This document shows, piece after piece, positions 22,774 to 58,232 of a stretch of DNA of 64,000 nt (positions are counted from its first letter, which is position 1; the number at the start of each line of letters is the position of its first letter). The position numbers and the translations under genes are program-made. Below the pieces are notes generated by a model. The model was not told where the DNA came from. It made no database searches and was given only the letters and a program-made list of their open reading frames with translations. The DNA is from a virus (taxonomy: Duplodnaviria > Caudoviricetes): IMG/VR virus record IMGVR_UViG_2645727757_000001, positions 32,001-96,000 of that record; one strand, 5' to 3'.

Positions 22774-23313
22774 TTGCGAGGGTTTTTAATGAAGAAACAA
22801 ACAAAAACGGTTCTTGCATTAGATGCTTCTTTATCATCGACTGGTTATGCAATAATTGATTATAACTTAAAACCAATATTAATAAATAGAATTTGTACTG
22901 ACACAAGGGTTAGTGAAGAAGAGAGAATAAGAACTATAGTTAACGATATTGTTGGCTTATGTGTTGTTTATAATATTAAGGAAGCTGTAATTGAGGATCA
23001 GCATTTTAGTATTAATAAAAAAACTGCGATGCAATTATCAAGGCTAAGAGGTGCGATAACTTATGCCTTGATGGAAAAGAATATAACAGTTAGCACCATA
23101 GCACCTACTACCACTAAAAAGGTTTTTTGCGGACGTGGAAATGCAAGTAAAGAAGATGTTGCTGCGGAAGTTTTAAACAAATATCCTAATAACACTTTAA
23201 TAAGAAAAATAGGTCCATTTTCAGACAAATCAGGCAAAAATAAAACTAGTGATATGTATGATGCCTTATGTATAGGGTATTCATATATAGTAGGGAATAG
23301 AAATGAAAAATGA
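22774..23313 (+). CDS. ruvC: Holliday junction resolvase RuvC
   Basis: VLALDASLSSTGYA, AVIED, KKVFCGRGNASKE and DMYDAL catalytic pattern. Confidence 0.85.
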   Translation: MRGFLMKKQTKTVLALDASLSSTGYAIIDYNLKPILINRICTDTRVSEEERIRTIVNDIVGLCVVYNIKEAVIEDQHFSINKKTAMQLSRLRGAITYALMEKNITVSTIAPTTTKKVFCGRGNASKEDVAAEVLNKYPNNTLIRKIGPFSDKSGKNKTSDMYDALCIGYSYIVGNRNEK

Positions 23314-24142
23314 TTTAGAAGTTTATAATAAAATACACAATTTAGTTATTGAATTTCAAAATGGGAACAAGGATAGCGGATTAGAGCTTTTAGAGTGTTT
23401 TAAAAATTATACTAATAAATATGTAGATTTAATTAAATTTGGGATATTTGAAACAAAAAATAAAAGTTTAAAAAAGTTTATATCAATATTTTTTAGAAAT
23501 ATTAACTGGAAACTATACAAAGATTTTAATAATCCAGATAACTTAAACTTCTGGAATAATAGAGCACAAAGAATCTCTTCGATATTTGGGGATATATCAA
23601 AGGAAGAGGTTACTTCAATAGTTCAGTATTCAATATTAAAAATGGCCAAGATTTATAATTCAAAGAATCCTACATTCCATACTTATATAAGCAGATGCTT
23701 ACATTATTTTATTTACAATGAAGTAAAGAAATTAATTAAAGATCCTGTAGCAAATTCAATAGATTTGTATTGTGATAATTTAGATAAATGTACATTAGCT
23801 GAAATGATTATGCTTAATAAGACTAATTTTTATGAGGATTCATACCAAAGAGATCAGATAGATGAAAGAATTAATATTGAATTTGAAATAAACAAATCCG
23901 ATATATCAATAAAATCTAATAACTTAGAATCTATGGAAGACAGCTTTCTTGATATAAATTGGATTAATGGTATTACTTGTAGTGAACAGTTTAAAGAACT
24001 TACTCCTTTTGAAAGAAAAATAATATTAGATCACACTATTTACAAGAAAACAGATACTCAAATAGCTAATGAGTATGGATGTGTTAGAGCAACAATAAAT
24101 AGAAAAAGATTAAAAGCAATCAGTAAAATAAAATTGCTTTAA
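23303..24142 (+). CDS. Phage RNA polymerase sigma-70-family factor
   Basis: LVIEFQNG start, region-2-like AKIYN...TFHTYI, region-4 HTH LTPFERKII...TDTQIANEYGCVRATINRKRLKAISKIK. Confidence 0.7.
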   Translation: MKNDLEVYNKIHNLVIEFQNGNKDSGLELLECFKNYTNKYVDLIKFGIFETKNKSLKKFISIFFRNINWKLYKDFNNPDNLNFWNNRAQRISSIFGDISKEEVTSIVQYSILKMAKIYNSKNPTFHTYISRCLHYFIYNEVKKLIKDPVANSIDLYCDNLDKCTLAEMIMLNKTNFYEDSYQRDQIDERINIEFEINKSDISIKSNNLESMEDSFLDINWINGITCSEQFKELTPFERKIILDHTIYKKTDTQIANEYGCVRATINRKRLKAISKIKLL

Positions 24143-24678: not shown

Positions 24679-24706
24679 AGGTAGGTTCATATGAACCTAC
24701 CTTTTT
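24679..24706. terminator. Bidirectional terminator at the convergence of the two genome arms
   Basis: 24-bp perfect palindrome AGGTAGGTTCATATGAACCTACCT with a T-run on the right and an A-run on the left. Confidence 0.75.
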
Positions 24707-25644
24707 AAATAGAATTTTCTTGCATTAGAAAGAGAATTATTTCCCAAAAATTCTTTTAATTCTATAGAGGACATACCTTCTTCTATAGATTTCATTGCCT
24801 TAGTGTTTCTTAGCATACTTGGATTACATTTTTTATTGAAAGGTAGTTTACTTTTACCCATATTAGATAATAAACGTTGAACACCTCTAGGTCCAAGCCT
24901 ATCTCCACGTTCACCTAAAAATAGATATTCAACTTTAACATCTCTACCTTTTTTTAATCCCCTTGCTACAGCTCTTCCTCTTTCTCTGTAGTAAGGTTCT
25001 AATAAATTAGTGCAATATGAACTTAATTTAAATTTCCTATTTATTTTATCATTTTTTACTATGTACAAGGTATTTTCTTGCAAATCATCTAATTTTAAAT
25101 TACATAATTCACTTAATTTTATTCCTGTATTTATTAAAATAGCTGCTACAAGTCTATCCCTATATGGATATCTACTTTTTATGTAATTAGATAATAATAA
25201 TTCTATTTGCCAATCTTCCATTAGCTTAAAATTAAATCTTGTATCTACAATTTTATTATATAATTTAACAGGATCATTATTTATTTCTTTATATTCTTCT
25301 CTTAAAAAAGAATAAAATAAATCCAAACTACATATCTTTCTTGAATTAGTTGTATCTGAATTTCTTCTTTTATCAAATGAAAAATCAATATAATTTAGTA
25401 TATATTCATCCGAAATATTTCCCAACTTTTCTAATGAAACATTGTAATAATCTACATCATTAAACAATTTATCTTCATCTTCTTTGTATCTAATATACTT
25501 TAAAAATAATACTAAATCAGAAACATAATTCTTAATTGTCAAATCCTTATAGTCTTTTTCTTCCATATAATTTATGAATTTATTAAAATAAGTAGGATAG
25601 ATTAATTTAGTATGTGTACTATGTACATTATCCACAATACTCAC
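24697..25644 (-). CDS. XerC/D-like tyrosine recombinase-fold protein with degenerate active site
   Basis: SAM-like N-terminus (TIKNYVSDL, TNSRKICSL), RDRLVAAILINTGIKLSEL, LFLGERGDRL, PSMLRNTKA, FLGNNSL...FY. Confidence 0.8.
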   Translation of the reverse strand: MSIVDNVHSTHTKLIYPTYFNKFINYMEEKDYKDLTIKNYVSDLVLFLKYIRYKEDEDKLFNDVDYYNVSLEKLGNISDEYILNYIDFSFDKRRNSDTTNSRKICSLDLFYSFLREEYKEINNDPVKLYNKIVDTRFNFKLMEDWQIELLLSNYIKSRYPYRDRLVAAILINTGIKLSELCNLKLDDLQENTLYIVKNDKINRKFKLSSYCTNLLEPYYRERGRAVARGLKKGRDVKVEYLFLGERGDRLGPRGVQRLLSNMGKSKLPFNKKCNPSMLRNTKAMKSIEEGMSSIELKEFLGNNSLSNARKFYLKR

Positions 25645-25685
25645 CTCTTATTTATTAGTCTATATTTTATACAAAATATTATACC

Positions 25686-25720
25686 AAAAAAATTAGACTA
25701 ATCAAATGATTAGTCTAATT
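25686..25720 (-). terminator. Intrinsic terminator of the candidate sRNA
   Basis: AATTAGACTAATCA-aa-TGATTAGTCTAATT plus an A-run on +. It overlaps a TTGATT-16-TATAAT (extended -10) promoter for the recombinase gene. Confidence 0.75.
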
Positions 25721-25805
25721 TCCACCACTCACAAAAAGGTAAGAATTGAAATAAAGAATTTGTTTTAACTCCGCAAGAATTTATAACACACTCTATGCAC
25801 ACGTC
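25686..25805 (-). ncRNA. Candidate small RNA of about 120 nt, crRNA-like layout
   Basis: Bounded by a TTGACA-17-TAAACT promoter and a 14-bp hairpin with U7 tail; no ORF of note inside. The start coordinate is approximate. Confidence 0.55.
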
Positions 25806-25811
25806 ATAATA

Positions 25812-25840
25812 AGTTTAACATTTTAATACTTAATTGTCAA
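25812..25840 (-). promoter_or_regulatory. Sigma-A-type promoter of the candidate sRNA
   Basis: Minus-strand TTGACA (25840-25835), 17 bp, TAAACT (25817-25812). Confidence 0.65.
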
Positions 25841-26234
25841 TAATTTCAAAATAAAATTTAATCAAATTAATTTTATAATTTACCATTTTCTAGAATTGCA
25901 CTAAATCTACATTTAGCGAAATTTATCGAAAAAAATACATAAGACAAGAATGGCTCAACCAAGCCATTTGTAAGCTTTTTTACATATAGTGGAAAATGAT
26001 TTACCGTAATTGAATTTCATTGTGCAGTATGTACAGTATGTAAATAGGAAATTTTTTTAAGAAACTTAGACCTGATTCATTAAGAATTTTTACTGGAATT
26101 ATATGTATTTTATATTAAAAATTGCAATTTAGATTTCTATAAAAAAATAATTTCAAGAATTTTTTAAAAGCTATAATTACACAATTAAAATTAACTTAAA
26201 ATATTATTTTCGACAAAAAAGATATTAAAAAACC

Positions 26235-26277
26235 AAAAATACCTAGTAAAATATAAAATTATATTTCACTAGGTATT
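26235..26277 (-). terminator. Intrinsic terminator after the Cas11-like gene
   Basis: AATACCTAGT...ACTAGGTATT extended stem with a U-run on the minus strand. Confidence 0.75.
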
Positions 26278-26296
26278 AAGGAAATTAATATTGTTA

Positions 26297-26560
26297 TTAG
26301 CATTTTAACTTTTCTACATTAGCATTTTGTAATCCCATAGCTATAATGAAACTATATCTAGTGACAATAACATCATCTAAATCAGTTGGTATTTTAATAT
26401 TATTTGCAAAAGATATTCTAAGAAGCATATCTAATATTTGATCTTTATATGCTACTTTATTTTCAGTCATCAAATAAATAAGCCTTTGAATTACATTGTA
26501 GGATTCTTTGCTGCCTACTGCTAAACCATAATTATAATACTTTTTTTCTTCATTCTTCAT
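26297..26560 (-). CDS. Cas11-like (Cas8b1 C-terminal domain-like) small protein; candidate anti-CRISPR
   Basis: 87 aa, AGGAG RBS. The pattern YNYG...YLMTENKVAYKDQILDMLLRISFANNIKIP...F..GL resembles, from memory, the helical C-terminus of clostridial Cas8b1 (Y..G...Y.MLN..K..NK..F.D...R.......P...F..GL). CRISPR-like repeats lie directly upstream. Confidence 0.55.
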   Translation of the reverse strand: MKNEEKKYYNYGLAVGSKESYNVIQRLIYLMTENKVAYKDQILDMLLRISFANNIKIPTDLDDVIVTRYSFIIAMGLQNANVEKLKC

Positions 26561-26589
26561 GTTTTATCTCTCCTAATTTTTATTAATAT

Positions 26590-26653
26590 AATTACATTCC
26601 ACATAGTTAAACTAAAAATTATTTTAATAAACTCCGCATAGTTAAGATAAAAC
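26590..26653 (-). CRISPR. Pair of degenerate type I-B-like CRISPR repeats (29 nt each, 6-nt gap)
   Basis: Minus strand: GTTTTATCTTAACTATGCGGAGTTTATTA-aaataa-TTTTTAGTTTAACTATGTGGAATGTAATT. The copies are 21/29 identical, and the second differs at about 4 positions from the C. difficile-type repeat GTTTTAGATTAACTATATGGAATGTAAAT as recalled. Confidence 0.75.
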
Positions 26654-26658
26654 TATAT

Positions 26659-26688
26659 TTCAAACAAATTATACTAGATAAGTTTGAA
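26659..26688 (-). promoter_or_regulatory. Putative -10 box flanked by an inverted repeat upstream of the repeats
   Basis: Minus-strand TATAAT at 26673-26668 lies inside TTCAAAC-N16-GTTTGAA; no clear -35. Confidence 0.4.
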
Positions 26689-26715
26689 TACATAACTATT
26701 ATACACTAAAATACA

Positions 26716-27207
26716 TTATTCTACAATATCAGTTATGTTTTTAAGAATAAAATCTCTAAATTCTTTTTGAGGTAAAGAAAGACTATATCTTATATCTAGC
26801 TTATCTATTTTGTTGCAAATTAAATAAGCATCTTCACGTTTTTCAAGTATTCTTTGCAACATAATTTTCACATCTAATAGAAATTTAAAATTATTTTTTA
26901 TATTACTAATAGTTTCTTTGCTAGGATGATCTTCTCTTTCTTTTAATATACTATATACAGCAACAGGTCTGTTTAACCCCCTAGCTTCTACTAATATAGT
27001 ATCTCCAGTATTTAAATTTTTATAATAAACTGAATCATTTTCTACTATAGCATCAAAGACAAAACTAGTAGAAATATTTTCATTAACTCTATTTGCTACA
27101 TCTTCTTTGACACTTATCCATATTCCTTCTCCATTACCGTTTTGATAAGATTCATAATCGTAAGGTAAATTTGCTTTTATTAGTTTTTCATTAGATTTAT
27201 TCATCAT
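26716..27207 (-). CDS. Hypothetical protein
   Basis: 163 aa, AAGGGA RBS, GNGEGIW motif. Confidence 0.6.
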   Translation of the reverse strand: MMNKSNEKLIKANLPYDYESYQNGNGEGIWISVKEDVANRVNENISTSFVFDAIVENDSVYYKNLNTGDTILVEARGLNRPVAVYSILKEREDHPSKETISNIKNNFKFLLDVKIMLQRILEKREDAYLICNKIDKLDIRYSLSLPQKEFRDFILKNITDIVE

Positions 27208-27239: not shown

Positions 27240-27578
27240 TTATACCATAAAATCTGGTGGCATTTTGATTTTATCTTTTACTGGTCGCCACATATGTAAA
27301 CAATGTTCATGTATATTTATATAATCCTCTTTTGGTGGGTGTAATTGCATTACTGTTTCATTGTCTTCAAAAAACATATCTTTAATCTTGCACATCGTGT
27401 CCCAAGATGGTGTTACATTTTTATGGCTTACGCTTACGTGTTCCCATTCATCTGTTTTAGCTGCAATTACGAATGTTTCTATATCATCTATTAACAGAAA
27501 AAAAGCACCATTATATTCATCACCAATTTCACCAAAAAGTTTAACTCTATAGTTGTTTAAATAATTTAAATTCTTCAT
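27240..27578 (-). CDS. Conserved phage hypothetical protein (WEHVSVS family)
   Basis: WEHVSVS...PSWDTMCKIKDMFF...HPPKEDYINIHEHCLHMW, a widespread phage family. Confidence 0.75.
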   Translation of the reverse strand: MKNLNYLNNYRVKLFGEIGDEYNGAFFLLIDDIETFVIAAKTDEWEHVSVSHKNVTPSWDTMCKIKDMFFEDNETVMQLHPPKEDYINIHEHCLHMWRPVKDKIKMPPDFMV

Positions 27579-27970
27579 TTTGTTTCTCCCATCTCAATTA
27601 AATTCTCTTTTATACTAAAAAATGCAAATTCATATTTACATAATTTTAAGTTCTCATTTATATGATTATGTAAATCTAATTCAAAATCTTTAATACTTTC
27701 GTATTTTTTCCACCCTCTAGGTAAATAAATATAAAATAATTTATCAAGAGGATTTTCAAAAATAATGCCTGTTCCAGTTGATGATATGTTACAATTCAAC
27801 ATTTCTTTAGGCATAATTATAGATTTTTCTCTCCAATTACATATAGATAACAATTCATTTAAATCAAAATTATCCTTTAAAATATATCCTCTAGGAGATA
27901 TTTTATAACTAATATTTTCATCATCAAATCTAAAGGTATATACATTTATCTTCATTTTATTATTCTCCAT
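27575..27970 (-). CDS. Hypothetical protein, paralog of the adjacent gene
   Basis: Shares FDL....CNW...P..M.NC..S..G.G...EN......LP.GWK.Y with 27960-28364. Confidence 0.7.
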   Translation of the reverse strand: MENNKMKINVYTFRFDDENISYKISPRGYILKDNFDLNELLSICNWREKSIIMPKEMLNCNISSTGTGIIFENPLDKLFYIYLPRGWKKYESIKDFELDLHNHINENLKLCKYEFAFFSIKENLIEMGETK

Positions 27971-28364
27971 ATCCAGTTTTTATGGTTGGTTCTAGCATAA
28001 GCAAAGAAGCCATTAATGCTGTACGATCCATTTTTCCTATAATATTTTCTTTTATATCTTTTATTATTTCTTCAAATGTATTATATTCTTTCCATCCAAA
28101 AGGTAGTGATAAATATATTTTATTAGTAACTGTATTTTCAATTACTAAACCACTTCCTACCTGCGATAATGAACAATTTTTCATTATGTTTGGTCTTTCA
28201 CTACACCAAGCATCCCAATTACATAAATTAAATATTTTCATTAAATCAAATTTTGAATCTTCAACAAATCCATAATTTTTTATACTTATTTCTTTATCAG
28301 TAAACTCAACTTTAGATATATTTATTAGCATTATAATACCTCTTTCCCTTTTGTAAAAGTCCAT
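27960..28364 (-). CDS. Hypothetical protein, paralog of the adjacent gene
   Basis: Same motif set as 27575-27970. The true start is probably the Met after the GAGG RBS. Confidence 0.7.
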   Translation of the reverse strand: MDFYKRERGIIMLINISKVEFTDKEISIKNYGFVEDSKFDLMKIFNLCNWDAWCSERPNIMKNCSLSQVGSGLVIENTVTNKIYLSLPFGWKEYNTFEEIIKDIKENIIGKMDRTALMASLLMLEPTIKTGYGE

Positions 28365-53848: not shown

Positions 53849-56137
53849 TTAATCTAATGTGAAATCAAAATTATTGCTTACTTTTGGAGCTTCTTTAATT
53901 TCGATATTGTTGTTATATTTTTTAGTAGGTTCTTTAATGTCAGATACTTTTTTGGAAGTATCAACTGAAATATTTTTGAAAATATTGTTATATTTTCCTG
54001 TGAAGGTTAAAACAGAACCCTCCAAGAACTGATTTTTAAACTTATGAAATGCTTTTGAGAATAAATTAACTCTAAATAATGTTCCATTTTTATCTTTTAA
54101 TATAGCAGCTAAAAATTGTTTGGAATTTTTAGTGTATTTAATTTCTGAACTTATTACTATTCCTGATGTAGTTACCTTGCTATTCATTTTACAAGCACTT
54201 AAATCTGTATATGGTAATCCATCCGCAGGATTGGAAGAAATAAAATCTCCTAAATAATCAAATTCATATTTAAACTTATCTATATCACTATAGGAAGCAA
54301 CATTTAGTAGTTCTTTGCCTTTATTTTTCTTGCTTTTAATATACTCATTGTACAATTCATGTCTGTTGCTGTTTATTTCATCGAAGCAACCAGATAATAT
54401 TAAGCTAACTTCAACTTTCATATCTACGGGGCATTTTTTATTGCCACTGGACGTATAATTATCGGCAAACAGATTAATATTTTCCTTTGAGTGCATTTCA
54501 TCGTAAAATTCTTTGAAGGAATTAAATTTACCAACCTTTTTTCTTATATTTAAAATATAGTTTATTGCACTTAATCCAACGTTTTTAATGGCAATAAATC
54601 CATATCTTATTTCATTTTCTTTATTTGAAGAGAATCCAGCTATGCTATGATTTATTGAAGGAGGAAGTACATCAACACCTCTTCTTCTACATTGTTGCAA
54701 TGTTGCTGATATTTTTTCACTATCATCTAAGTTCTTTAGACAACCTAAAGCCCATTCTACAGGGTGATGGAAACTTAAATATGCAGTTTTATATCCTACA
54801 AAGCCATAGGCAACACTATGAGATTTATTAAAAGCATATTTACAGAACTCTTCCATAATATCGAAAATATCTCTAGCTAATTTTTCATCAAAGTTATTGT
54901 TAATAGCTCCTATACACCAGTCACTATCTTCTTCACTTAAACCAATAACTTTTTTATCTTTTCCAATTCCTTCATATATAGATTTTTTACCATATATGAA
55001 TTCATTACGAATTTCGGGAATCATAGAAAGTTTCTTTTTTGCAAGAGGTTTTCTTATTCTGCTATCGGCTCCGCCTAAGTTATATCCTGCCATTACTTGT
55101 CCTAATCTCATACAATCTTCTTGGTAGAGAATTGTACCGTATGTTTCTTCTAAAATCCAGTCAATTCGTTCATCTAATTCTGGTACATCACCAGTTCTTT
55201 TTCTTTCAGCATACATATCCGCCATTGAAAGCCCAGTTTGCTTATTTTTAGCTAACGGTCCAGGGCGATTTGAGGCGTTAACAGCAACTAAATCCTCAAA
55301 TTTATTTACATTATAATCATATAATAATTTTATAGCTCCTTGTCCTGCCATCTGGAAGATATTAGTTGTGTCTCCATTACGAAGCATTTTATAAATCTTC
55401 TTATCACTTACATCTTCACTATCATACCAATCCCAATCTAAACCTGCTAAATCCATAGCATCTTTAATCTGATCTAATGTTCTAAGACCTAAAGCATCTA
55501 TTTTAAGTAACTTATAAAAGTCAACATCTGCCATATCAGCTTGTATTATAGGAAGTACTGCTGTATTGGAACCTGTTTCGATAGGTAAGTGATTTCTTAA
55601 TGGTTCATTTGAAATGATAACTCCACCAGCATGAATACCTTTTGAAGCAATAGCTCCGCCTAAATTTTCTAAAGCTAAACCTACCTCTGGATATTTTTCT
55701 ATCATAATTTCAAGTTTTTCTACAGTAGAAACTATGTTATCAAATTCAGCTTCGGTAAGCTCATAGTCATTAGGATTCTTATAAGCATTTAATAATGTTT
55801 TATAAGATAAAGGTTCTTCCCCTATAAAAGAAGGAGCATATTTCGTTAAGTCATTTACTTCATCAAATTTATCTGGAGCAAGAACTGACATAACTGCTTT
55901 TATTAAATTTTTAAATTTATATTCAGTAAAAGTTATAATTTGAGAAACATATTCTATACCGTATTTCTCTTTAAGATATAATATAGCTTTAGCTCTATCT
56001 CTCTTGGAAATATCGGTGTCTATATCAGGAGCTTCCATTCTTAATGGATTTAAAAATCTCTCAAATAATAAATTATATTTTATCGGGTCTATTTTAGTTA
56101 TATCTAATACATAAGCTACAATTGATCCAGCTCCACT
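53849..56137 (-). CDS. dnaE: DNA polymerase III alpha, exon 2
   Basis: SGAGS.VAY, LLFERFLNP, PDIDTD, HAGG, KIDALGL, YAFNKSHS and a C-terminal OB fold. Spliced product is 1134 aa. Confidence 0.95.
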   Translation of the reverse strand, partial: SGAGSIVAYVLDITKIDPIKYNLLFERFLNPLRMEAPDIDTDISKRDRAKAILYLKEKYGIEYVSQIITFTEYKFKNLIKAVMSVLAPDKFDEVNDLTKYAPSFIGEEPLSYKTLLNAYKNPNDYELTEAEFDNIVSTVEKLEIMIEKYPEVGLALENLGGAIASKGIHAGGVIISNEPLRNHLPIETGSNTAVLPIIQADMADVDFYKLLKIDALGLRTLDQIKDAMDLAGLDWDWYDSEDVSDKKIYKMLRNGDTTNIFQMAGQGAIKLLYDYNVNKFEDLVAVNASNRPGPLAKNKQTGLSMADMYAERKRTGDVPELDERIDWILEETYGTILYQEDCMRLGQVMAGYNLGGADSRIRKPLAKKKLSMIPEIRNEFIYGKKSIYEGIGKDKKVIGLSEEDSDWCIGAINNNFDEKLARDIFDIMEEFCKYAFNKSHSVAYGFVGYKTAYLSFHHPVEWALGCLKNLDDSEKISATLQQCRRRGVDVLPPSINHSIAGFSSNKENEIRYGFIAIKNVGLSAINYILNIRKKVGKFNSFKEFYDEMHSKENINLFADNYTSSGNKKCPVDMKVEVSLILSGCFDEINSNRHELYNEYIKSKKNKGKELLNVASYSDIDKFKYEFDYLGDFISSNPADGLPYTDLSACKMNSKVTTSGIVISSEIKYTKNSKQFLAAILKDKNGTLFRVNLFSKAFHKFKNQFLEGSVLTFTGKYNNIFKNISVDTSKKVSDIKEPTKKYNNNIEIKEAPKVSNNFDFTLD

Positions 56138-57116
56138 CATTTATACCCTGGTTTTCACCATATTTACATTCTATAAAAGAATAGGGATTAGACTATATCT
56201 TCATCCTATTTCTAGGAGCAACGCACTTCAAAGGGTAGCATCTCCCTCTTACATAATAGTCGTTTGACTTTTTTATTTGTTGTAAGTTTTATAATCTATA
56301 ATTTTTTTCACAGATTTCCATGTCATATTATATTTTTTACTTAAAGATGATATAGAGTAACCTTCTTTATGTCTTTGTCTTATATCTTCTGCATCTTGTA
56401 ATGTCAATTTTCTTTGTGTCTTCTGCATTTTTATAGGCTCTTTATCTTTATCAAAATTATAATATCTACAATTTAGAATATCTGCTATAGTTGTTTTAGA
56501 AACATTATATTTGATAGCTAGTTTTCTTTGGGAAGTATTTGAAGTTAAATATTCTTTTCTTATTTCATCAGCTTGTAAATCAGTTAAACTTCTATTTTTA
56601 GGTTTTTTTGCTTTATTTAAACCTGTGGCAAAAGCGTGTAACTGATTTTCACCGTTTGTACACCATTCTAAATTAGAAACATTATTATTACTCTTATCTC
56701 CATCCTTATGATTTACTTGTGGTAAATTATTAGGATTTTCTATATAAGTTATTGCTACTAATCTATGAATTCTGTACGATTTTTTATTCAACTTTATTCC
56801 TTCATAACCTTTTCTATTTATAGATGTTTTTAAATACTTATTTGTAATTGTTGAATAAATTCTACCGTCTTCATCTATTAAATATTTTTCTAAACCTTCT
56901 ATATTTATAGTTTTCACAATAATCACCTCTGATTATTAATTATACAACAAATAAACTTAGCACAGGATAGGCTTGTCGTATAGATTTAGCTTTCCCTGTT
57001 AGCATAACTTCTATTACTCATTTCCTAGTAATCCTAACCGTAAGTTATACACCCTCTTGCAATAAAGGTTCACGTTGTTTTACTTAGTAAATTACTCTAC
57101 TAAGGAGGCCATATTA
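56138..57116 (-). mobile_element. Group I intron in dnaE (979 nt) carrying an HNH endonuclease
   Basis: The exon ends GGT and the intron ends G, restoring GRG-SGAGS. P1 GAGGU/GCCUC. R element GTCAAACGACTA (56268-56257), S element AAGATATAGTCT (56201-56190). Confidence 0.93.
56273..56926 (-). CDS. Intron-encoded HNH homing endonuclease (I-HmuI/NUMOD4-like) with C-terminal HTH repeats
   Basis: HRLVA...VNHKDGDKSNNNVSNLEWCT..EN..HA; two LT..A..IR HTH modules. The start may be the GTG at 56917. Confidence 0.9.
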   Translation of the reverse strand: MIIVKTINIEGLEKYLIDEDGRIYSTITNKYLKTSINRKGYEGIKLNKKSYRIHRLVAITYIENPNNLPQVNHKDGDKSNNNVSNLEWCTNGENQLHAFATGLNKAKKPKNRSLTDLQADEIRKEYLTSNTSQRKLAIKYNVSKTTIADILNCRYYNFDKDKEPIKMQKTQRKLTLQDAEDIRQRHKEGYSISSLSKKYNMTWKSVKKIIDYKTYNK

Positions 57117-58232
57117 ACCTCTTCCTGGACCTAAAGGTATACCAGCTTTTCTACAATATAAAAACCAATCCCAAAGTATTAAGAAATATCCAGCATATCC
57201 TTTAGAACAAATAACATCAAGTTCATAATTAAGTCTTTTAAGTCTTACTTCATAATCTTTTTGCTTTTTGTTTATATACTTTTTATTTAAACAATCAAAG
57301 GCTAGTTCTCTTAGATAAGTAGATTCATCATAGCCTTTAGGACATTTAAACTTAGGATATAACCCATTACTACTCTTTGGTTTTGGATCAATTTTGCATT
57401 GTTCTGAAATCTTTACTGTATTATCTATAGCTGATAATGGTATATCGTATTCTATACAATAATCTTTTAATTCATCATAGCTCATAAGATAATTTTCAGT
57501 ATCCATTCCATTTGGAAAGCCATCCATCTTTTTTAATATATTATGATATATTTTATCTTCCTTTTTTAAATAATGTGTATCTGTAGTAATAACCAGTTCA
57601 ATACCAGTTTCTTTTGATATTTGTACTAAGTCATTATTTACAAGTAGCTGTTGTGGAATTATATGAGGTTGAACCTCTAAATAAAAAGAATCAAAAATAG
57701 AGTTATAATAAATAGCTTTTTCTTTAGCTTTTTGATATTCTCCATTTAAGATTAATTTAGGAATTAAGCCACCTATACATCCACTCAAAGCTATTATTCC
57801 ATTTCCGTATTTCTCTAAAACACTATCTTCTGTTTGTGATTTACCTTCCGTTTTTGCGGATTTACTTTTCCTTTTTATTTTATGTGTTCCTGCATCGGAA
57901 GCTATATTATAAAGATTCTCTAATCCATCATTATTCTTGGCCAATAAAACCATGTGAAAAGAATCTCTATTTCCTTCTTCTCTTTCTTCACAATGATAAA
58001 TTTCGCATCCAATTATAGCATTAGTATACGTTGATACTTCACTATAAAATTTAACTAATGAATAAATATTTCCATGATCCGTTAATGCTATTCCAACAAT
58101 ATCATCTTTTGAATCATCTTCATTAGATTCTTTTGCTACTTTCGCATATTGATATGGTGCTACTATAGAATCTTTAATTGAATAAACAGTATGATTATGC
58201 AAATACGCAATTTTACCTAATGTTCTCACCAC
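57117..58232 (-). CDS. dnaE: DNA polymerase III alpha, exon 1 (PHP domain)
   Basis: HNHTVYS, ALTDHG, GCEIY, ALSGC, TDTHY; ends GPGRG. Confidence 0.95.

Follow-up and report, generated by a model that had tools for sequence, protein, structure and literature searches.

A phage locus joining two spacerless type I-B CRISPR repeats to a Cas11-like gene: a candidate dual anti-CRISPR unit

Can one short transcription unit of a phage strike the same CRISPR surveillance complex with both an RNA and a protein? The question is raised by a minus-strand locus in a Caudoviricetes genome (IMG/VR virus record IMGVR_UViG_2645727757_000001), in which two 29-nucleotide (nt) repeats, here R1 and R2, lie upstream of an 87-codon open reading frame (ORF), here ORF87. 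We studied this locus in the window, by which we mean the whole stretch of 64,000 nt that makes up bases 32001-96000 of the linear, 185,364-bp record. A first-pass annotation, drawn up from the DNA letters alone, had listed a -10 box, two CRISPR-like repeats, a leader with AGGAG, a small ORF and a terminator, had likened the encoded protein to Cas11, the small subunit of the surveillance complex Cascade, and had proposed that RNA and protein act together against a clostridial type I-B system. Each of these elements is present on the minus strand where it had been placed, as seen on reading the sequence and from ORF and hairpin calls (Table 1). By analogy with known inhibitors we favour, at somewhat better than even confidence, a compact anti-CRISPR unit directed against the Cascade of Cas8b1/Cst1-type I-B systems, in which a decoy resembling the known RNA anti-CRISPRs (Racrs) would be combined with a Cas11 mimic resembling the anti-CRISPR protein (Acr) AcrIB4.

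CRISPR repeats without a spacer

The repeats belong to a clostridial and bacillar type I-B family and lie in the sense orientation of the CRISPR RNA (crRNA), as both Rfam and comparison with genuine arrays indicate; in this respect the first-pass annotation was right. R2 matches the repeat GTTTTAGATTAACTATGTGGAATGTAAAT of an array on another viral contig (L002, where all 9 of 9 copies are identical) at 26 of 29 positions, with three mismatches. It has four mismatches to the repeats of Hathewaya limosa (99 copies), Clostridium baratii, a Sarcina metagenome-assembled genome, C. bornimense and two Caloranaerobacter genomes, and its identity to eight genome arrays is 25/29. In a search with 161 nt, the best Rfam match of both copies was CRISPR-DR14 (R2, 31.9 bits, E 0.011; R1, 20.9 bits, E 1.2), with both scores under the gathering score of 45. 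To set these resemblances against chance, we simulated the 185-kb genome 100 times with a first-order Markov model and counted 29-mers by mismatch. No simulated genome contained a 29-mer with three or fewer mismatches, the closest had five, and sites with up to seven mismatches averaged 0.8. In the real genome, R2 alone lies within five mismatches of five family variants; within seven there are R2, R1 and one other site, and no further repeat copy occurs within six mismatches across the 185-kb record. R2 is certainly a CRISPR repeat, far beyond what chance would yield. A third repeat-like stretch near 25760-25790, noticed by eye (18/29 with a gap), was rejected as chance.

An exact search with a 19-nt core of the repeat recovered true arrays on four other viral contigs (L002, L003, L005 and L006), with a periodicity of 65-69 nt and spacers of 35-40 nt, and 41 stretches in genome representatives of Clostridium, Hathewaya, Sarcina, Caloranaerobacter, Eubacterium multiforme, Ureibacillus, Lysinibacillus, Bacillus and others. 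Related arrays decay at the 3' end of the orientation used here, which identifies GTTTT...AAAT as the transcribed sense; both R1 and R2 are in this crRNA sense and share strand and direction with ORF87. Arrays of this repeat family in Clostridioides difficile prophages have spacers of 35-39 nt (PMC4556805). The 6 nt between R1 and R2, as against the 35-40-nt spacers of real family arrays, exclude a working spacer, and the pair is not a mini-CRISPR array. The absence of cas genes claimed for the window holds well beyond it, since models of Cas8b1, Cas7, Cas5, Cas6, Cas1, Cas2 and the Cas3 core gave no match at E ≤ 1 in the whole 185,364-bp record. The locus thus carries a virus-borne sequence close to the CRISPR repeats of one subtype (R2, type I-B) that stands, as a Racr does, outside any array and without spacers or a cas operon, yet as a pair and not as a single unit.

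R1 is identical to R2 at 21 of 29 positions. Its first 17 nt are those of real repeat variants, whereas its 3' third, where an 8-nt crRNA tag would lie, is divergent; it gains credibility only from those 17 nt and from its position, in register on the strand of R2 and 35 nt upstream of it. In R2 the tag region is intact at 7 of 8 positions. Cas6b of type I-B systems cleaves a single repeat at a point 8 nt short of its 3' end (PMC3479195), and from the resulting rule of an 8-nt 5' tag we predict a cut in R2 between 26598 and 26597 that would leave the tag ATGTAATT on the downstream RNA. Two observations concern repeat variants: over its first 16 nt, R1 is identical to the variant of Clostridium moniliforme and Eubacterium multiforme, the Cas8 of E. 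multiforme being of the Csx8 type, and R2 is nearest to variants that accompany Cst1-type Cas8 (loci compared: L008, L021, L025, L044 and L045). R1 and R2 might, on this pattern, mimic two different repeat variants. An 18-nt core of R1 had a single match, in a coding region of an unrelated high-GC phage, which we judged to be chance, and an exact R2-like 28-mer pattern had none in the genome representatives.

ORF87 and the Cascade small subunit

We take ORF87 to be a real gene because AGGAG precedes its ATG by 9 nt, because it has conserved relatives and because its AlphaFold2 model is confident. Among 5.8 billion clustered proteins there is one related cluster, made up of P0002 (80% identical) and P0005 (90 aa, on 7 contigs of at most 63 kb), and a word-indexed search returned, among three candidates, ORF87 itself and one 80% relative. 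HMMER against 1.84 billion representatives gave three proteins at E ≤ 0.001, of which two are true relatives, including P0003 (85 aa, 43% identical to ORF87, E 3.7e-11); the match to P0004, an 840-aa ankyrin-like repeat protein, was dropped as spurious. The contigs that encode P0002 and P0003 are short. Across the three sequences formed by ORF87 and its 80% and 43% relatives, 33 columns are invariant, among them YYNYG, ESY and MGLQNA. Pfam, PHROGs and NCBIfam offered nothing usable (the sole NCBIfam row had 15.7 bits, where the cut-off is 350, and was taken as chance), the ESM Atlas gave scores of at most 0.79 and no lead, and tblastn against GenBank phages gave chance rows alone, at E ≥ 1.

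Modelled by AlphaFold2 from three sequences, ORF87 forms five helices (predicted local distance difference test, pLDDT, 93.3; predicted template-modelling score, pTM, 0.85). In an exhaustive VIA-align search of 48,161 PDB representative chains the four highest-ranking were, in order and with the search values in brackets, 5u07_B of a type I-E surveillance complex (6.9, 80), 9cro_J of a type I-A Cascade (6.5, 83), 3wa8_B, the CasB of M. ruber (6.4, 86), and 8fcj_J of the Cascade of a type I-B CRISPR-associated transposon, CAST (5.3, 81). Seven further entries of the top 50 (Cse2 2zca, 8bmw_A, the Csm1 C-terminus 6ifk_A, Csa5 3zc4, 8d9g_B, 8yb6_K and 7zoq_B) are of the Cse2, Csa5, Csm, Csm1 C-terminus, gRAMP or I-E Cascade kind. 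From their size, the entry titles and the control described next, we infer that 5u07_B, 9cro_J and 8fcj_J are Cascade small-subunit chains; 8FCJ contains Cas8 and Cas11 (EVADES preprint, 10.1101/2025.06.06.658234). The control, a genuine Cas8b1 C-terminal domain, yielded nearly the same list of neighbours with similar Z, and it has five helices in the order found in ORF87. The model shows the compact all-alpha fold common to Cse2, Csa5, Csm2 and Cas11b. Foldseek with the same model gave no row at E ≤ 0.001 against PDB and BFVD, and neither profile found anything meaningful in a sequence search of the PDB.

For a comparison at the level of sequence, cas8b genes beside arrays of this repeat family were found through Cas7, genome G002 being left out of the Cas8 scoring. 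By hhalign, the ORF87 family matched four of the C-terminal domains with P 0.0024, and a profile of 60 such domains (these four and 56 of Cas8b1/Cst1) with a score of 27.4 and P 1.5e-4, residues 25-84 of ORF87 lying on 38-99 of the domain. None of 200 column shuffles of the query reached 27.4 (mean 11.5, standard deviation 2.4, maximum 22.4), and the reversed query scored 13.6. Against a full-length Cas8b1 profile of 55 sequences the best match was again C-terminal, at 500-554 of 566, and the aligned segments of ORF87 and Cas8b1 correspond to helices 2-5 of both models. The Cas11 likeness that had been suggested at first sight is borne out by the fold, and by profile the protein weakly resembles the C-terminal domain of Cas8b1.

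In I-B systems, Cas11b is reported to be translated internally within cas8b (PMC11899642; 10.1101/2025.06.06.658234). An internal methionine, 101-125 residues from the end and following a GG motif, is present in 55 of 56 Cas8b1 proteins (P0006-P0061), a conservation that fits a widespread internal Cas11b start in clostridial I-B systems. We also noted that many small proteins called independently, for instance P0065 and P0066 in the set P0062-P0123 and an 89-95-aa Csx8-type set, begin exactly at this methionine. The start of ORF87 aligns near the conserved internal methionine of Cas8b1, and the alignment suggests that ORF87 corresponds to the Cas11b product, shortened by about 15-25 residues. 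With good confidence we regard ORF87 as Cas11-like and probably derived from the 3' end of a Cas8b1 gene. Were it instead an ordinary small helical phage protein unrelated to Cas11, only the repeats would be CRISPR-related, as a Racr; the modest scores of ORF87 would agree with such a protein, but we think it unlikely, since the four best of 48,161 chains are Cascade small chains or CasB and the list of the Cas8b1 control is alike, since with each of the three Cst1-type profiles hhalign places the match in the C-terminal domain, where it keeps register with the five predicted helices and outscores 200 of 200 shuffles, and since the size of ORF87 is near that of AcrIB4 (about 90 residues shared with Cas8b), though below the 101-114 counted from the internal methionine.

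A two-part inhibitor and competing explanations

Established here are the identity of the repeats and their orientation, the fact that both parts are orphans, and, for ORF87, a Cas11-like fold with weak profile homology. Building on them, we envision a scenario in which the unit is transcribed leftward, from either of two TATAAT boxes or by read-through out of the upstream gene, and in which Cas6b of the host binds and cuts R2 and perhaps also R1. The piece so released, of about 35 nt (the R1 tag, 6 nt and the first 21 nt of R2), would be too short for the Cas7/Cascade backbone and would hence act as a decoy, occupying Cas6b, and perhaps Cas5 and Cas7 as well, in unproductive particles, much as Racrs bind Cas6 and Cas7 and lead to dead-end subcomplexes (PMC10651486). 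The RNA 3' of the R2 cut would be the mRNA of ORF87, and its product, a copy of the small subunit Cas11b (encoded by the 3' end of cas8b) that has been shortened and has diverged fast, would take the place of Cas11b beside the Cas8b C-terminal domain and the Cas7 backbone. The resulting Cascade would assemble, yet would not hold the R-loop, as proposed for AcrIB4 of Listeria. Transcription, processing by Cas6b, binding to Cascade and inhibition are thus the predicted steps. The host of the phage is probably an AT-rich clostridial bacterium, and the profile match to domains of the Cst1 type and not the Csx8 type, together with the nearest repeats of R2, points to Cst1-type I-B systems of Clostridia as the putative target.

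Several results weigh against this two-part inhibitor. R1 taken alone is at chance level, with seven mismatches at best to real repeats where 0.8 such sites are expected per genome, and its degenerate tag region may cause binding or cutting of R1 to fail. BLASTP found no alignment between ORF87 and the Cas8b C-terminal domain, the hhalign probability was 52% at best, P weakened to 0.033 with the full-length Cas8b1 profile, and C-terminal domains of the Csx8 type (32 sequences) scored 12.1, the level of the shuffles; between Cst1-type and Csx8-type domains themselves the match is at E 6e-17. A pattern search of IMG/VR and JGI metagenome contigs turned up no second spacerless pair of these repeats, and none of 539 spacers from arrays with this repeat family matches the phage, the best agreeing at 19 of 36 nt. 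The promoter is the weakest element: the single -10 box of the first-pass annotation turned out to be one of two TATAAT boxes, but neither has a good -35 ahead of it and a consensus scan gave no promoter at 9/12 or better. A neighbouring plus-strand gene, convergent with the recombinase gene, encodes a sigma-70-family factor (TIGR02937, E 2.5e-8, below the cut-off); with such a factor of its own, the phage may use promoters that deviate from the host consensus, which weakens the promoter calls made for the unit.

Conservation of the locus could be followed in close relatives. The unit is collinear, with no joint inside it, in a near-identical strain (X1) and, at about 91% identity, in relatives represented by a contig of 1,398 bp (X2) and one of 18.5 kb (X3). 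All five gaps of the aligned piece of X2 are confined to 25996-26051, and repeats, leader and ORF87 are accordingly free of indels there. Whether homologues of ORF87 keep repeats upstream, which bears on the coupling first proposed, is answered only indirectly, by the collinearity of the two relatives at about 91% identity: no DNA locus encoding a relative of ORF87 was found in the viral, genome or metagenome contigs searched. Phage sequences yielded no blastn match to the unit, searched as 521 nt.

A further role of the repeats, beyond that of decoys, would be that of a switch operated by Cas6b: given their place in the 5' untranslated region, the host enzyme would have to cut R2 to release an ORF87 mRNA that bears a stable 5'-OH crRNA tag; we hold this to be improbable. 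The same cut would also release the mRNA from a helix that the start of R1 forms with the 9 nt preceding the AUG and that would mask the start region. The first 9 nt of R1 (26645-26653) are indeed perfectly complementary to the last 9 nt of the leader (26561-26569) and pair with them in the minimum-energy fold; the complementarity is not significant, 309 of 5000 leader shuffles giving at least 9, and the RNA fold of the unit is no stabler than shuffles (z -1.23). If such a switch existed, the Cas11 mimic would be made chiefly in cells running I-B, and the first enzyme of the defence would trigger the countermeasure.

In a second alternative, R2 would serve as the 5' tag of a crRNA-like RNA, with the downstream leader and the start of ORF87 as the guide, and Cascade carrying the phage Cas11 would repress a host promoter, for example that of cas genes or of a CRISPR-guarded toxin. 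Viral crRNA-like RNAs (Cracrs) that reprogram Cas proteins are described, often with co-encoded Acrs and including predicted I-B cases (10.1101/2024.10.29.618823), and the R2 tag is kept at 7 of 8 nt. The Cracrs of that source, though, have a pseudo-spacer with a median of 19 nt between two repeat-like elements, here there are a 6-nt gap and no repeat after the guide, and a guide that doubles as the ribosome-binding region of an mRNA would be unusual; such a hijack seems to us quite improbable. Equally doubtful is a decayed relic, the remnant of a phage mini-array that lost its spacer by inter-repeat recombination beside an unrelated or disused ORF87: cas-less true arrays of this family do occur on prophage contigs (L002, L003, L005 and L006) and likewise in C. 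difficile prophages (PMC4556805), and R1 is degenerate as terminal repeats are, but the degenerate copy is leader-proximal, the opposite of array decay, R2 is still 26/29 identical with nothing else repeat-like in the genome, it would be a remarkable coincidence for the neighbour to look Cas11-like by both of two independent measures, and the unit is indel-free in 91%-identical relatives with ORF87 kept at 43% identity.

If the two-part inhibitor is real, one unit of 450 nt hits one surveillance complex twice, through its RNA scaffold and through its small subunit, and provides a clostridial-type I-B example in which RNA anti-CRISPRs and Cas-derived anti-CRISPRs are joined in one operon. Type I-B is the commonest CRISPR subtype in Clostridia, and to our knowledge few inhibitors of it are known there. 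So compact a pair could be of use in the control of I-B genome-editing tools and could give insight into the host range of large gut phages. It would also show that Cas11-like anti-CRISPRs can drift past sequence recognition, and here it was the adjacent repeat that flagged a candidate missed by homology searches. SRUFinder, the published finder of solitary repeats, discards tandem spacerless ones; its 100-bp rule would drop a pair spaced by 6 nt as a mini-array (PMC10651486), and such units may for this reason be under-counted.

Genomic setting and known systems

The record has a G+C content of 27.6% and an estimated completeness of 86%. In the window, tail-fibre-like genes occupy the plus strand, and a long replication block on the minus strand encodes a DnaG-type primase, an SbcCD-like nuclease, a UvrD helicase, a chaperonin and a split DNA polymerase III alpha, whose PHP-domain and polymerase-core parts are about 1 kb apart. 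By tblastn this polymerase has a best identity of about 31%, and thus no close cultured phage relative. The unit sits toward the 3' end of this block.

Table 1. Features of the locus and its neighbourhood, in window positions
Feature	Positions	Strand	Remarks
DNA polymerase III alpha, two genes	53849-56140; 57114-58232	minus	PHP-domain and polymerase-core genes
134-aa paralogue	27960-28364	minus	33% identity to the 131-aa paralogue, E 4e-19; no family match
131-aa paralogue	27575-27970	minus	no family match
DUF7694 protein gene	27240-27578		in a run of small genes upstream of the unit
163-aa ORF	26716-27207		weak ESM Atlas leads, PUA/EVE-like or YjbR-like clusters, 0.92
Upstream TATAAT, candidate -10	26703-26698	minus	read from sequence; 12 nt past the stop of the 163-aa ORF (26716)
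Second TATAAT, candidate -10	26673-26668	minus	read from sequence; 14 nt before R1
R1, degenerate repeat	26653-26625	minus	GTTTTATCTTAACTATGCGGAGTTTATTA
Linker AAATAA	26624-26619	minus	6 nt; start-to-start repeat spacing 35 nt
R2, near-canonical repeat	26618-26590	minus	TTTTTAGTTTAACTATGTGGAATGTAATT
Leader	26589-26561	minus	29 nt; Shine-Dalgarno AGGAG at 26574-26570, 9 nt ahead of ATG
ORF87	ATG 26560, stop end 26297	minus	87 codons
Intrinsic terminator	26277-26228	minus	hairpin 26277-26238, 18 pairs (3 G-C), 4-nt loop, then T-run; inverted repeat I3, 95% complementary
ORF-free stretch	25645-26237		about 590 nt; no ORF of at least 30 aa on either strand
Terminator-like hairpin	25968-25949		second such hairpin, in the ORF-free stretch
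Palindrome	25690-25721		perfect, 15 nt; immediately upstream of a TGnTATAAT-like box
XerC/D-like tyrosine recombinase gene	24697-25644	minus
Sigma-70-family factor gene	23303-24142	plus	convergent with the recombinase gene

Downstream of the unit, between the terminator of ORF87 and the recombinase gene, lies a stretch free of ORFs, in which a perfect palindrome and another terminator-like hairpin occur and which may serve for attachment or resolution and include an operator. Upstream, the run of small genes made up of a paralogue pair, the DUF7694 protein gene and the 163-aa ORF could be an anti-defence island.

How does the unit compare with known inhibitors? AcrIC5-RacrIC1 is a bicistronic, co-transcribed acr-racr operon, and acr genes are enriched within 1 kb of racr candidates (PMC10651486). 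Like that operon, the unit described here has a virus-borne repeat mimic, outside arrays and without cas genes, beside a candidate protein Acr gene, all of one subtype. It differs in being of type I-B and in having two tandem copies 6 nt apart instead of one; its repeats lie upstream of the gene, in the 5' untranslated region, whereas RacrIC1 is 11 nt downstream of its gene; and the protein partner is here itself a putative Cas mimic. The protein part invites comparison with AcrIB4 of Listeria, which is 38% identical to the last 90 residues of Cas8b and stops target binding while Cascade can still assemble (10.1101/2023.06.24.545427), and which has been proposed to replace Cas11 (10.1101/2025.06.06.658234). 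Compared by description, ORF87 is likewise an orphan of about 90 aa on a mobile element that resembles the end of Cas8b, which corresponds to Cas11b; unlike AcrIB4, it has no BLAST-detectable similarity to any Cas8b, and for AcrIB4 homologues were reported in Listeria alone, with no adjacent repeat in the text consulted (10.1101/2023.06.24.545427). With Cas11b itself, reported to be translated from an internal start in cas8b (PMC11899642, PMC11096372), ORF87 shares the five-helix fold and structural neighbours; it is the shorter of the two, with 87 aa against about 101-114, has no tail of charged residues at the C-terminus, is a lone gene in a phage and is too diverged for BLAST to recognise.

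Two further kinds of viral repeat RNA resemble the unit in part. Synergy of RNA and protein anti-CRISPRs is described for a Cracr with AcrIF24 (10.1101/2024.10.29.618823), where, as here, tandem viral repeat-like RNA elements stand beside a co-encoded candidate Acr; Cracrs have pseudo-spacers with a median of 19 nt that match cas or creT promoters, as against the 6-nt gap found here, which is too small to hold the Cracr kind of pseudo-spacer, about 18-27 nt long and flanked by repeat-like elements, and R2 is not followed by another repeat. The cas-less arrays of C. difficile prophages (PMC4556805) place the same 29-nt repeat family on phage DNA and rely on Cas proteins of the host, as the unit would; unlike the unit, they carry spacers of 35-39 nt, used against competing phages. 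The first-pass annotation went too far in treating the arrangement as undescribed, since acr-racr operons, the synergy of RNA and protein inhibitors and the Cas11-like AcrIB4 are all published, but a Racr joined to a Cas11-like gene was not found in the literature searches or in the texts consulted. What is new in this locus on the RNA side is the I-B subtype, the tandem spacerless pair and its location in a 5' untranslated region; what is new on the protein side is a Cas11-like candidate invisible to sequence searches, and with it the union of two mimics of one complex, one of its RNA and one of a subunit.

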